A stretch of DNA of 64,000 nucleotides from NCBI RefSeq assembly GCF_013122565.1, contig NZ_CP053258.1; one strand, given 5' to 3'. Below the pieces are notes generated by a model. The model saw only the letters and a list, made by a program, of their open reading frames with translations, did no database searches and was not told the origin of the DNA. Below are positions 8,269 to 11,448 of this stretch, one piece after another. Source of the stretch: Escherichia coli (lineage in GTDB: Bacteria; Pseudomonadota; Gammaproteobacteria; Enterobacterales; Enterobacteriaceae). The translations under genes were made by a program, and so were the position numbers. How positions within the stretch are numbered: position 1 is the first letter of the stretch; the number at the start of each line of letters is the position of its first letter.

Positions 8269-9750
8269 CTATGCTAATCCCAGGCGTTGGAACTGCTCTG
8301 GCGGCGCATCATTGTCTTTCATCAACTGAATCAGCAACGCGATCATCCGGGCCTCGATCGCATCATCATGAATCGGATGCAGCTGCTGCGGATCGTTTTG
8401 CAGATCAAACAGCAAATGACCAAACTGATTCAGCCCCTTATATTTCTCCTGTGCCGGGATGCGTAACACCTGCAACCCTTTGGTGAAACGAAACGGTGGA
8501 GCTAGCGATAAAGCCCGCATCTCATCCACCTGATAGCGGCTGTTCATTTTGCAAGCCATTAATGTGTAATTAGCAATATCATCCTCACGCCCTGGCAGCG
8601 CGGCTCGCATATACACATAACGCCCATCGGTTACGTTGACATGACCACTGAAGACACCAAACATCGCCGCACTGCGTACCGGTTCATCGTGGCTGACCGT
8701 TTTCGCCAGCGGTTGCCCCTGCACATCGGGCGGCACCGGCTGCTGAAAAAAGTCATACAACGTAGGCGCCCAGTCGATCATCTGCACCAGCGCCTGACGC
8801 CGTTCGCCTTTTACACCGCTGCGCGGATCCCAGATAAACAGCGGGTTATTCGCCACCTCGTTGTAATAAGGCATCTGGTTTTTCGCCCACCAGCCATGCT
8901 CACCGAGCAAAAAACCGTGGTCGGTGCCGACAATCAGCATGGTGTCTCGCCACAGATCGTGCGCATCCATCAGGTCGAGAATGCGCCCCAGGTTGCGATC
9001 GCACATCGACACCAGCGAGCGATAGCGGCAGCGAATATGCTCCACGGCCTCGTCGCTTTCCTGCACCCGACCACGCGGCCAGTCATAATGCGGCCCGTTC
9101 CAGTCATCCTCATACAACGAAAGGTACTCTTGCGTTGTGTGAAACGGCTCGTGCGGATCAAACGTTTCGATCTGCAATAACCAGTTATCTTGCGCGTGGT
9201 TTTTGTGGATAAAAGCACAACCCGCATCAAAGACTTTGGTTTGTGGAAAATCCGCTTCCTGCTGAATATATTCCCGGTTGGCCCAGTCATGACGCCACAG
9301 GCCAGAAACACCGCCGCCGGTCTGCTTTTGCGGCACCCGTAGCACCTCAGGAATAGGCGGTTGCGCAACGCTTGCCTGCCAGTGATCGCCCTCCTGACCG
9401 CGCACAATTTCCCATGAACTATAGCGATTATGGTAATTTCCGCCGCCATCTTCCCAATAATGCAAATGATCGCTTATCAGGTGGGTATAGATCCCCGCCT
9501 TTTTAAGCAGCTCCGGCATGGAGTCGTCAAACGGTTCTAACGGCCCCCACTCCCGGTGCAGGAAGTTACATCGCCCGGTATGCAGCTCCCGCCGGGCGGG
9601 CATACAGGGCATACTTCCGACGTAACTGTTTTCAAAGGTGGCGGCATGTGCCGCCAGGCGCTGGAAATTCGCTGCTTTTGTCAATAAATCGCCATACGGG
9701 GGTAAATATCTTTTGTTCAGACTATCGAACAGGATAATAATGGCTTTCAT
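8269..9750 (-). CDS. Cys-type sulfatase family protein (no signal peptide)
   Basis: 493-aa ORF with sulfatase signature C-M-P-A-R-R-E-L-H-T-G-R near N-terminus; absent at this position in K-12 as I recall it. Confidence 0.75.
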   Translation of the reverse strand: MKAIIILFDSLNKRYLPPYGDLLTKAANFQRLAAHAATFENSYVGSMPCMPARRELHTGRCNFLHREWGPLEPFDDSMPELLKKAGIYTHLISDHLHYWEDGGGNYHNRYSSWEIVRGQEGDHWQASVAQPPIPEVLRVPQKQTGGGVSGLWRHDWANREYIQQEADFPQTKVFDAGCAFIHKNHAQDNWLLQIETFDPHEPFHTTQEYLSLYEDDWNGPHYDWPRGRVQESDEAVEHIRCRYRSLVSMCDRNLGRILDLMDAHDLWRDTMLIVGTDHGFLLGEHGWWAKNQMPYYNEVANNPLFIWDPRSGVKGERRQALVQMIDWAPTLYDFFQQPVPPDVQGQPLAKTVSHDEPVRSAAMFGVFSGHVNVTDGRYVYMRAALPGREDDIANYTLMACKMNSRYQVDEMRALSLAPPFRFTKGLQVLRIPAQEKYKGLNQFGHLLFDLQNDPQQLHPIHDDAIEARMIALLIQLMKDNDAPPEQFQRLGLA

Positions 9751-9762
9751 TGCTCATCCCTT

Positions 9763-10083
9763 TTAATTTTTTATCAGATGAGGGAAATGCTGCTGGACGA
9801 CTTCATAAATCTGCGCGCCAATCGTTTCACCATCCATAATATTTTCAATCGGGATCAGATATTGCCCGTGTTTCGGGTCCAGACTGACCACATCGAGTAA
9901 TTTTTTGGAAATTGCAAAAATATCCGCCCAATCGGTAAATCCCCCCACCTCGCCTGCGGCAGTATGTTCCATTTCAACTTTGAACTCATATTTCGTCAGT
10001 GCTTTTTTAACGACCGTTTGTAACATCACGCTACTACCGACACCATAACCACAGACAAACAGAATATTAATTGTATCTTTCAT
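9763..10083 (-). CDS. PTS system IIB component (ascorbate/L-Asc family-like)
   Basis: 106-aa ORF MKDTINILFVCGYGVGSS... with Cys phosphorylation-site context typical of SgaB-like IIB. Confidence 0.75.
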   Translation of the reverse strand: MKDTINILFVCGYGVGSSVMLQTVVKKALTKYEFKVEMEHTAAGEVGGFTDWADIFAISKKLLDVVSLDPKHGQYLIPIENIMDGETIGAQIYEVVQQHFPHLIKN

Positions 10084-10104
10084 TTTTAACCCCTTAATAG
10101 TGAA

Positions 10105-11448
10105 TTATCCCGCGTAAGGACCAAGATGGAATGTTGCAGCGATAAATTTCAGAACTTCACAAATAGCCGGCCATACGGTTGCCCAGTCAAATATTCCTGT
10201 CCAGCCAACGCCATTTTCAGCAAGCCCGGTTAACGGAATTGCCCACACCGTACCGAAGGTCTGAATAATACCCAGCAAGAACGTACAGATAATTACGGAG
10301 CGGTATCCACCCATGCGGTTTGCTAATACGCCAATCGGGCCGCCTGAGAAAAATAACGGTACAAAGCCTGGCAATACCATAATGGGGCTGTGGATCAGCA
10401 ATAAGATACCCATCGAGAAAATGGTGCCAAAAGTACAGAAGACAAAACCTAACGTTGCGGCATTGGGTGAAAAAGGCAACAGCGCGGCGACATCGACGGC
10501 GGGAATAGCGTTAGGTATAAAGCGATCCTGCCAGCCTTTAAACGAACCGTTAATTTCACCGACCATCATGCGCACGCCCTGCAGCAGAATGACCATGTAC
10601 ATGGAGAACTGTAAGCCCAGGTTGATGATATAGATGTACCAGGGCTTGCCTTTCGCCATTAACTGGACATTATCGATACCCGTTGAGAGCAGGAAGCCAC
10701 CAACAAACAGCGTCATCACAATGGCGATAGCCGTTACGTTGTGGTTAAAAATCGCCAGCCAGCCGGGGAGTTTCAGGTTTTCAGCATCGTGTTTTTCCGG
10801 GTCGCCAAATTTATGCGCGAATTTGGAGAAAAACCACAATCCCAACATCTGGTTATGGGCAATGGTAAAACCGGCATCTTTAGTCACTTTGGCAATGGGT
10901 TTAACAATGAGCGTGGTGGAGAAAGCCCAGAATATCCCCGTTAATACCCCGGCGATAATAATCGATGTAGTCCAGCTAAATCCTAACCAAAAAACGATTA
11001 ACCATAATACTGCCTGAGAATGTGACACCCCGGTATTACCGGTCAGGAATATTCCTTTGGCACCGGTATAGCGACCAAACAGCACCAGTAAGAGGTTGGT
11101 AAAAAACGCCAGAACAAATACATACCCTACATAACCAAAATTATCCCCCAACGCAATTTGCGTTGCGGCTTTCATGGCGTAGGAATCCATTAAATAACCG
11201 TGAACGCCATAGGCTTTACTTACCGCTTCCGCCACCGGTTTAAAGGTTGCGGAAAACTGAAAACCACCAAATAACACCATCATTAATCCCACCATGGCGC
11301 TGACCATGCCGGTGATTATTTTGATGGGTGATTTCTTATCAAGGGCATAACCAATGCCCACCAGCAAACCAATTAATATTGCCGGTTCGGTTAAAAACGT
11401 TTGAATAACATCTATGAATTTGGCAAACATCGTCGGAACGCCCTCCAT
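10105..11448 (-). CDS. PTS system IIC permease (SgaT/UlaA family-like)
   Basis: 447-aa polytopic membrane ORF resembling UlaA-type IIC; exact start uncertain. Confidence 0.75.
   Translation of the reverse strand: MEGVPTMFAKFIDVIQTFLTEPAILIGLLVGIGYALDKKSPIKIITGMVSAMVGLMMVLFGGFQFSATFKPVAEAVSKAYGVHGYLMDSYAMKAATQIALGDNFGYVGYVFVLAFFTNLLLVLFGRYTGAKGIFLTGNTGVSHSQAVLWLIVFWLGFSWTTSIIIAGVLTGIFWAFSTTLIVKPIAKVTKDAGFTIAHNQMLGLWFFSKFAHKFGDPEKHDAENLKLPGWLAIFNHNVTAIAIVMTLFVGGFLLSTGIDNVQLMAKGKPWYIYIINLGLQFSMYMVILLQGVRMMVGEINGSFKGWQDRFIPNAIPAVDVAALLPFSPNAATLGFVFCTFGTIFSMGILLLIHSPIMVLPGFVPLFFSGGPIGVLANRMGGYRSVIICTFLLGIIQTFGTVWAIPLTGLAENGVGWTGIFDWATVWPAICEVLKFIAATFHLGPYAG

Follow-up and report, generated by a model that had tools for sequence, protein, structure and literature searches.

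A PTS permease-sulfatase module of Escherichia coli as a candidate feeder of sulfated ascorbate into the ula pathway

What does a cytoplasmic sulfatase act upon when its gene is found directly behind those of a sugar permease? This question is raised by a 64,000-nucleotide stretch of Escherichia coli contig NZ_CP053258.1 (assembly GCF_013122565.1; hereafter the window), in which the interval between artJ and rlmC contains three minus-strand open reading frames (ORFs). In the order of transcription, these encode the enzyme IIC and enzyme IIB of a phosphoenolpyruvate (PEP)-dependent phosphotransferase system (PTS), followed by a sulfatase (Table 1), and we refer to the three genes together as the module. 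An initial annotation, made from the sequence alone, had already placed three such genes between artJ and rlmC and had described the site as empty in K-12. The ORFs lie exactly where it put them, and in K-12 artJ and rlmC are indeed adjacent, separated by a 198-bp spacer that contains repetitive extragenic palindromic (REP) sequence. The three genes are tightly packed, with intergenic gaps of 21 nt (IIC-IIB) and 12 nt (IIB-sulfatase), and ribosome-binding sites precede the starts of both the sulfatase (AGGGA) and IIB (AAGGGG). They form one operon, as had likewise been proposed for the sulfatase and an ascorbate-family permease. The IIC may truly begin at an internal ATG at position 11430 (Met7), because its homologues start there. 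Neither the module nor the remainder of the window contains a gene for a IIA (PTS_EIIA_2), a regulator, a catabolic enzyme, or an anaerobic sulfatase-maturating enzyme (anSME). From the evidence presented below, we lean with moderate confidence towards the module being a feeder that brings a sulfated L-ascorbate, probably ascorbate-2-sulfate, into the resident ula fermentation pathway.

The initial annotation had suggested PTS uptake followed by intracellular desulfation. A scan for homologues using one genome per species yielded 63 loci (numbered here with the prefix L), of which 41 encode a sulfatase ≥60% identical to that of the window (hereafter the close loci), while the other 22 are more distant. 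IIC and IIB genes of the same type are present in 37 of the 41 close loci, in nearly all cases directly upstream of the sulfatase, and in none of the 22 distant loci. In two homologue clusters, the sulfatase and a PTS IIA domain are even fused into a single polypeptide. Altogether, 15 related loci outside Enterobacteria have a IIA, whether separate or fused, and the usual non-enterobacterial gene order is [anSME]-DeoR-IIC-IIB-sulfatase-[IIA]. Neighbor-joining trees of the IIC and of the sulfatase are also broadly alike in shape. Both the fusions and the frequency of IIC-IIB support uptake coupled to intracellular desulfation and, as far as genomics can show, the pairing is functional. The predicted dependence upon an anaerobic maturase is similarly backed by anSME genes within 10 kb of the module in 10 of the 41 close loci. 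Three of the five anSMEs scored reached the TIGR03942 cut-off (L016, L021, and L039), with the other two having been scored from partial translations.

The permease itself is a relative of the ascorbate transporter. Its IIC matches the Pfam family EIIC-GAT (PF03611; E=3e-97, 326.7 bits) and the NCBIfam entry NF009550 (964 bits vs. a cut-off of 583), which is named only ‘PTS sugar transporter subunit IIC’. It is 39% identical to E. coli UlaA over 432 residues, and its score of 320.7 bits against the UlaA equivalog NF006919 lies below the cut-off of 380; the NCBIfam cut-off for the UlaB equivalog was likewise not reached. The IIB (PTS_IIB, PF02302) is 28% identical to UlaB, and its Cys11 in ILFVCGYGVGSS aligns with the Cys in the VCG motif near the N-terminus of UlaB, ILAVCGNGQGSS. 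Phylogenetically, the sulfatase-linked IICs form a single clade (100/100 bootstraps) that clusters with E. coli UlaA (100/100). Within this clade, the enterobacterial branch joins versions from Bacillus, Neobacillus, and Clostridium that are embedded within ula loci (92-93/100 bootstraps), and the earliest branch of all is the ula-embedded copy of Bacillus FJAT-50079. The IIC of the window is also 69% identical to the one within the ula locus of Bacillus sp. SD088. The residues of UlaA that contact ascorbate are available from UlaA structures, from which we took a comparison set of 11 pocket residues plus S59 and R288 (PMC6048161). The sulfatase-linked clade retains the ligand residues Y87, H194, D314, F362, and R288 as well as the pivot glycines G58 and G286, and it differs at S59G, H135N, I136A/T/S, Q139A/S, and Q195N, which are mostly changes to smaller residues. 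A new invariant His is also present in transmembrane helix 4a. From this pattern, we infer a pocket that is ascorbate-shaped and enlarged for an extra substituent. Judged by either the full residue set or the equivalog score, this IIC does not appear to be a UlaA-type ascorbate transporter. Second ‘UlaA-like’ IICs found among the loci had been considered as ascorbate transporter controls, but were rejected because three of the four (L020, L038, and L048) precede a second type of sulfatase (see below). Therefore, E. coli UlaA is the only valid reference.

An indication of the substrate comes from the surroundings of the module in other bacteria. UlaG, the L-ascorbate-6-phosphate lactonase, is encoded within 10 kb of the sulfatase, with or without the PTS genes, in 8 of the 41 close loci, and these eight proteins score 540-663 bits against an NCBIfam equivalog cut-off of 306. 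UlaD, UlaE, and UlaF usually accompany UlaG, and several of the modules lie within complete ula operons. At least five gene orders were found among these loci, which derive from Bacillaceae, Clostridia, Oscillospiraceae, and the actinobacterium Olsenella. In Neobacillus, the order is IIA-IIC-IIB-sulfatase-UlaG-D-E-F; in Bacillus sp. SD088, the module is divergent from DeoR-IIA-UlaG-D-E-F; and in Clostridium L044, the order is UlaG-IIA-IIC-IIB-sulfatase-x-UlaF-UlaE, while Olsenella and Oscillospiraceae provide further arrangements. Bacillus FJAT-50079 encodes, all on one strand, DeoR-UlaG-D-E-F, a IIC-IIB followed by a second sulfatase, the IIC-IIB-sulfatase studied here, and a IIA. In three Clostridium loci that lack the PTS, the sulfatase gene ends a TctA-UlaG-UlaF-UlaE-like-transketolase cluster, indicating that the sulfatase is linked to ula independently of the PTS. 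After clustering all neighboring ORFs from 62 loci, no recurrent catabolic pathway other than ula was detected. For the ula regulon of Sebaldella, a 2011 study of the UlaG family had already mentioned an ‘inserted’ sulfatase, without commenting on it (PMC3219644). The initial annotation considered the substrate not to be evident from sequence, and this holds for the window by itself. It does not hold overall, as the related loci tie the module to the ula pathway, which makes a sulfated ascorbate much likelier than a generic sulfated sugar.

Several additional features of these neighborhoods were observed. The second sulfatase type is also cytoplasmic, comprises ~450 aa, begins with ..VYIHTHDSG.., contains the motif TCSPSRS, and is ~20% identical to the enzyme of the window. 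Its gene directly follows a second Asc-family IIC-IIB type in Bacillus sp. FJAT-50079, as part of the ula operon, and in Dielma fastidiosa, while a 36%-identical relative is found beside an ABC transporter adjoining the ula locus of Bacillus sp. SD088. A protein of ~350 aa that neither Pfam nor NCBIfam matches is found repeatedly in ula-type clusters in which no UlaD homologue was detected, often near a split transketolase and, in three loci, alongside a URO-D-like protein. This protein may provide the decarboxylase step as a non-orthologous substitute. The Neobacillus niacini operon (L027) contains extra IIB-like and HPr-like ORFs (12628-12927 and 15247-15516), as judged by eye from their N-termini. 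In five Firmicute loci (L019, L021 at 6804-7511, L023, L025, and L046), short gene pairs of the ChrA family, which are chromate/sulfate-type anion transporters, adjoin the module and may export or dispose of the sulfate set free in the cytoplasm. Ahead of the module in Leclercia (L016, 3139-7839) are genes for a pyridoxal phosphate enzyme, an anSME sharing 43% identity with AslB, a DUF202 protein, and an arylsulfotransferase, and behind it is one for an Asp-Al_Ex permease; this is a small sulfate ester gene neighborhood.

The third gene of the module encodes a member of the S1 (formylglycine-type) sulfatases, with matches to the Pfam families Sulfatase (PF00884; 97.8 bits vs. a cut-off of 25) and SGSH_C (PF16347). 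The CxPxR signature reported by the initial annotation is found as C49-M-P-A-R-R-E-L-H-T-G-R, a motif that is invariant in 14 close homologues and aligns with the C/S-x-P-x-R of 7P24, 5G2V, and 4UPL at the formylglycine position of solved sulfatases, so the catalytic context is intact and Cys49 is the probable site of formylglycine formation. The absence of a signal peptide is equally borne out, as the protein begins MKAIIILFDS and its metal-ligand Asp is already residue 9, within the first beta-strand of a high-confidence model, which leaves no room for such a peptide; none of the close homologues has one either. Thus, the enzyme is a Cys-type cytoplasmic sulfatase. Among 76 diverse homologues, extending down to ~30% identity, D9, P51, R53, G59, H200, D277, H278, and K290 are invariant and C49 is ≥90% conserved. 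H200 belongs to a DPHEPF motif, while the D277-H278 pair and K290 complete the metal/catalytic set. The second N-terminal metal ligand is atypical, being Ser10 rather than Asp or Gln. Also incomplete is the Lys-x-His pair after the third strand, which is K113/H115 in the Pseudomonas arylsulfatase: His95 is present, and the Lys is replaced by Asp94. This substitution leaves the protein in the S1 fold family but marks a distinct subfamily. An initial AlphaFold model built from 14 sequences was poor (predicted local distance difference test [pLDDT] score of 62), whereas one rebuilt with the 76 diverse homologues reached a pLDDT of 96.1. Every one of the top 50 Foldseek matches listed for this model in the PDB is an S1 sulfatase or a phosphonate monoester hydrolase (PMH), with a probability of 1.00 and a template modeling (TM) score of 0.59-0.68, and the best of them have TM scores of 0.60-0.68 at 14-19% identity. 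Since the model is about equidistant from many S1 subfamilies, the fold gives no substrate call and structural neighbors were dropped as a guide to the substrate. Overall, the enzyme is of the formylglycine type and comes from an S1 subfamily that has no solved or characterized member.

A feeder pathway for sulfated ascorbate would operate as follows. The IIC/IIB, as a specialized sister of UlaA/UlaB, would import the sulfated ascorbate while phosphorylating its free 6-hydroxyl, with the phosphate passing from PEP via enzyme I and HPr to a IIA supplied in trans, most plausibly UlaC. Cys49 of the sulfatase would be converted to formylglycine by a resident maturase, presumably AslB or YdeM in Enterobacteria, after which the enzyme would split the sulfate ester to yield L-ascorbate-6-phosphate and sulfate. 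UlaG, UlaD, UlaE, and UlaF, which are encoded elsewhere in the chromosome, would then convert ascorbate-6-phosphate to D-xylulose-5-phosphate. In Enterobacteria, the IIA, regulator, and maturase would have to come in trans, and the absence of these and of catabolic genes from the module is consistent with a plug-in to the resident ula system and maturases. We favor ascorbate-2-sulfate as the probable substrate because its 6-hydroxyl is free and because it is a regular animal metabolite, being routinely measured in animal plasma and urine. Mammalian arylsulfatase A hydrolyzes this compound.

Of 5426 complete E. coli genomes, 566 carry the module, in each case as a single chromosomal copy, and these copies fall into two allele groups having ~95% (154 genomes) and ~92% (412 genomes) identity to the window. 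O157:H7 and O145 strains belong to the latter group. The three genes occupy this site in Salmonella enterica too, with a serovar Typhi record among the examples, while other Escherichia species, Silvania, Leclercia, and Yokenella also carry the module, some of them between different neighbors. Many gut Firmicutes are further carriers, and most carriers overall are gut bacteria. Compared to the O157:H7 allele, the ratio of nonsynonymous to synonymous divergence (dN/dS) is 0.044 for the sulfatase, 0.039 for IIB, and 0.008 for IIC at a dS of 0.38-0.74. The genes are under strong purifying selection and, given such low ratios at this divergence, they are both old and functional. A mobile element origin was considered and rejected, as no integrase, transposase, or border direct repeats are present at the module edges and Salmonella has it at the same site. 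Loss from most E. coli, or recombinational replacement, fits better than recent insertion. In the same comparison, dS is 0.31 for artJ and 0.07 for rlmC, which adjoins the module; artJ and the module seem to belong to an old, divergent haplotype that is bounded by recombination near rlmC. Over positions 7400-12900 of the window (5.5 kb), identity to the best complete E. coli genome reaches only 96.6%. The sulfatase protein shares 98% identity with its counterpart in ‘Escherichia sp. MOD1-EC7003’, but the DNA of that locus is ~93% identical on average. The window may derive from a divergent Escherichia lineage. In two E. coli strains, H31 (NZ_CP100994.1) and H75 (NZ_CP083585.1), an IS1 is annotated inside the stretch matching the module, and the IIC of H31 is annotated in two pieces.

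Upstream of the module, a single block is the only strongly conserved non-coding stretch across nine enterobacterial versions (Table 1), and it is retained in Silvania, Leclercia, and Yokenella even though the module sits between different genes in these genera. Its conservation suggests that it is likely the control region of the operon. The CRP-like site within this block is the single match to a relaxed CRP pattern in the window, a number that is within chance on its own. No sigma-70-like promoter was found in the upstream region of the module, as the only matches lie inside coding sequence, and Rfam detected no RNA element in its leader. Control by UlaR would be speculative: the block shares a 10-mer, an excess of 8-mers, and AATCA/TGATT repeats with the ulaG-ulaA region, but the local alignment is non-significant. 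The palindrome located just downstream of the rlmC stop is rich in GATC/CGATCG and is conserved in Escherichia and Salmonella, while being absent from the other module-bearing genera. The simplest reading is that it terminates rlmC and marks the upstream edge of the control region, although it may instead act as an operator. The artJ and sulfatase genes converge on a hairpin that is a probable bidirectional terminator. Unrelated to the module, the artM-artJ spacer (7229-7309) contains a match above the gathering score to Rfam naRNA4 (CssrE), which is REP-derived.

Table 1. Coordinates of the module, its flanking and non-coding features in the window, and related features in homologous loci (L numbers)
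Feature	Position	Strand	Basis or remark
PTS enzyme IIC, Asc family, sulfatase-linked clade	10105..11448	-	447 aa
PTS enzyme IIB, UlaB-like	9763..10083	-	106 aa
Presumed IIB phospho-Cys, Cys11	codon 10051-10053	-	alignment with UlaB
Cytoplasmic formylglycine-type (S1) sulfatase	8269..9750	-	493 aa
Codons of the sulfatase signature C49-M-P-A-R-R-E-L-H-T-G-R	9571..9606	-	read from translation
artJ, flank at the downstream boundary of the module	7487..8218	+	RefSeq annotation of matching E. coli loci
rlmC, flank at the upstream boundary of the module	11729..12856	-	RefSeq annotation of matching E. coli loci
Conserved upstream block, probable promoter/operator region	11549..11623	-	alignment of nine enterobacterial versions
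CRP-like site TGCAAATCAAATCACA	11604-11619	-	relaxed CRP pattern; AATCA/TGATT repeats in same block
Near-perfect palindrome, 46 bp, 21-nt arms, 4-nt loop	11635..11680	.	just downstream of rlmC stop
Perfect 13-bp-stem hairpin, 6-nt loop, 100% complementary	8227..8258	.	between convergent artJ and sulfatase
Second-sulfatase-family loci	L038 4692-7908; L020 14336-17425; L048 14375-17124; L031 12195-13529		
~350-aa protein	L044 6290-7327; L030 8105-9184; also L028, L035, L041		

A number of observations weigh against sulfated ascorbate as the substrate. No ula genes are found within 10 kb in about three quarters of the loci, including the window and all of the enterobacterial loci, so the link in Enterobacteria is one of homology and phylogeny rather than position. 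The best local alignment between the conserved upstream block and the ulaG-ulaA region is not above chance, being reached by 71 of 500 dinucleotide shuffles. In five of the six PTS-type ula-embedded clusters, the sulfatase-linked IIC/IIB is the sole permease and might therefore be a plain ascorbate transporter, with the sulfatase acting upon a side substrate. The TctA transporter of the Clostridium variant is non-phosphorylating, which does not agree with a strict specificity of the sulfatase for 6-phosphorylated substrates. As for the enzyme itself, an invariant Asp94 occupies the position of the sulfate-binding Lys of classical arylsulfatases, residues 93-160 (SDHLHYWEDGG...RGQEGD) align with no solved structure, and the best profile matches in the PDB include PMHs, with the arylsulfatase/PMH group first, so the ester being cleaved is not necessarily a sulfate.

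An unlikely, though still appreciable, alternative is that the PTS imports a sulfated sugar unrelated to ascorbate, such as a hexose, an amino sugar like N-acetylglucosamine (GlcNAc)-6-sulfate, a uronate, or a glycosaminoglycan or mucin fragment, which the sulfatase then desulfates in its phosphorylated form. In single-sequence searches, the best PDB matches are indeed mucin-desulfating and GlcNAc-6-O-sulfatases from gut Bacteroides (7P24 and 5G2V; E ~1e-20), but these matches span mainly the generic C-terminal half at 14-19% identity, and by Foldseek many other S1 subfamilies are equally far from the model. The prevalence of gut bacteria among the carriers and the missing ula genes near most loci would suit such a substrate, as would a pneumococcal island combining a Lac-family PTS, a sulfatase, and a maturase, for which host glycans are the suspected substrates (PMC3283741). 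However, a 6-O-sulfate would block PTS phosphorylation at C6, the IIC is a sister of UlaA that retains its core ascorbate ligands, and neither nag/aga, uronate, nor glycoside hydrolase genes recur as neighbors, whereas those of UlaG, D, E, and F do. If the cleaved ester is not a sulfate at all, the enzyme could be a formylglycine-dependent hydrolase of phosphonate monoesters, phosphodiesters, or phosphates, acting for example upon ascorbate-2-phosphate-6-phosphate or another phospho-ester that is made or imported by the PTS. We consider this improbable, even though the best PDB matches of the family profile are 4UPL, 4UPI, 2W8S, 2VQR, and 4UPK (E 1e-46 to 1e-51), D-S replaces D-D in the N-terminal metal motif, the sulfate-binding Lys is lost to Asp94, and there is a sub-threshold NCBIfam match to the phosphoric/sulfuric ester hydrolase PehA. 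In opposition are the neighbors, namely the ChrA-family anion transporters adjoining the module in five loci, the arylsulfotransferase in Leclercia, and a TauD-family dioxygenase adjoining distant homologues of the sulfatase in SAR86; moreover, ascorbate-2-phosphate is a synthetic compound and is not known as a natural metabolite. The anSME neighbors are uninformative in this respect because PMHs also use formylglycine.

Two further possibilities concern the purpose of the module rather than its chemistry. The sulfatase could serve sulfur scavenging by releasing sulfate under sulfate starvation, similar to AtsA of Pseudomonas, which is also a cytoplasmic Cys-type sulfatase. Sulfate would be set free inside the cell, and the distant SAR86 homologues do have an organosulfur context. 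Yet no ats, ssu, tau, cys, or cbl genes adjoin the PTS-linked clade, it is accompanied instead by a PEP-dependent sugar permease, by sugar regulators of the DeoR or SorC type, and by ula enzymes, and the ChrA-family pairs of some loci, read as possible sulfate exporters, fit disposal, all of which makes this highly unlikely. Least probable in our view is that the module is a decaying remnant having no current function in Escherichia. It is missing from ~90% of complete E. coli genomes, is interrupted by IS1 insertions in a few strains (H31 and H75), and has no IIA, regulator, or maturase of its own, but its ORFs are intact with dN/dS values of just 0.008-0.044, the same three genes occupy the same site in Salmonella enterica, and four other enterobacterial genera have kept both the module and its conserved upstream block.

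The nearest characterized system is UlaABC/UlaG-F, of which the module appears to be a relative and not a member; we found no characterized operon containing these genes. It resembles the E. coli ula PTS and regulon (UlaA/B/C, UlaG/D/E/F, and the repressor UlaR) in the homology of its IIC and IIB, in forming a sister clade of UlaA, and in lying inside ula operons in other bacteria. Unlike ula, it adds a sulfatase, has no IIA, regulator, or catabolic gene in Enterobacteria, occupies a different chromosomal site, is changed at five substrate-site positions, and misses the equivalog scores. The arylsulfatase/PMH group (SpAS1 4UPI, SpAS2 4UPL, RlPMH 2VQR, and BcPMH 2W8S) provides the best profile matches for the sulfatase (E ~1e-50) and shares its formylglycine nucleophile, its N-terminal D-x metal motif, and, in the second half, the DHG and Lys motifs, but identity is limited to 16-19% with TM scores of 0.65-0.67, residues 93-160 have no counterpart, and there is no PTS partner. 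Mammalian arylsulfatase A, as the ascorbate-2-sulfate sulfohydrolase, performs the same chemistry that is predicted here, i.e. a formylglycine-dependent hydrolysis of an enol sulfate. However, it is lysosomal, distant in sequence, acts upon the free conjugate rather than a 6-phosphate, and does not belong to a catabolic route. The closest parallel in gene content is the accessory island of Streptococcus pneumoniae, which encodes a ROK regulator, a Lac/cellobiose-family PTS, a sulfatase, and a sulfatase-modifying factor, with a TauE-like (sulfite/sulfonate exporter-like) gene nearby; mutants of the island are attenuated in mice, and no sulfatase activity was found using 4-methylumbelliferyl sulfate (PMC3283741). 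Both systems are variably present and combine a PTS permease with an intracellular sulfatase and a maturase, and the TauE-like gene is in a role corresponding to that of the ChrA-family pairs, whereas the PTS of the island is of the Lac rather than the Asc type, its regulator is different, and it has no ula link. In the open-access literature and bioRxiv, we found no paper on the module genes and none tying ascorbate sulfate to a bacterial PTS or sulfatase, while the SulfAtlas paper mentions neither ascorbate nor the PTS.

In thousands of Escherichia, Salmonella, and Firmicute genomes, these genes are currently annotated generically as ‘sulfatase’ or ‘PTS sugar transporter subunit’, and a specific substrate prediction would turn them into a defined pathway. 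Were the proposal correct, a sulfated compound would join the PTS substrates and a cytoplasmic sulfatase would act downstream of group translocation, for which we know of no characterized pathway. Ascorbate sulfate, an animal metabolite, would also gain a microbial sink. More tentatively, we suggest that gut bacteria, including enterohemorrhagic E. coli O157:H7 and Salmonella, could have a dedicated route for a vitamin C conjugate made by the host. Its PTS would be the first one demonstrated to transport a sulfated compound, and its sulfatase, from a new cytoplasmic subfamily, would act upon a sugar-acid phosphate and thereby regenerate ascorbate-6-phosphate. The same ula operons also contain another PTS-sulfatase pair that is unrelated, which would then imply that at least two distinct sulfated ascorbate species serve as nutrients in habitats associated with animals. 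The distribution of the module suggests a niche trait separating O157:H7, O145, and Salmonella from K-12-like E. coli. Even if the substrate proves to be wrong, the PTS-sulfatase-anSME module is a well-delimited and widely conserved unit.

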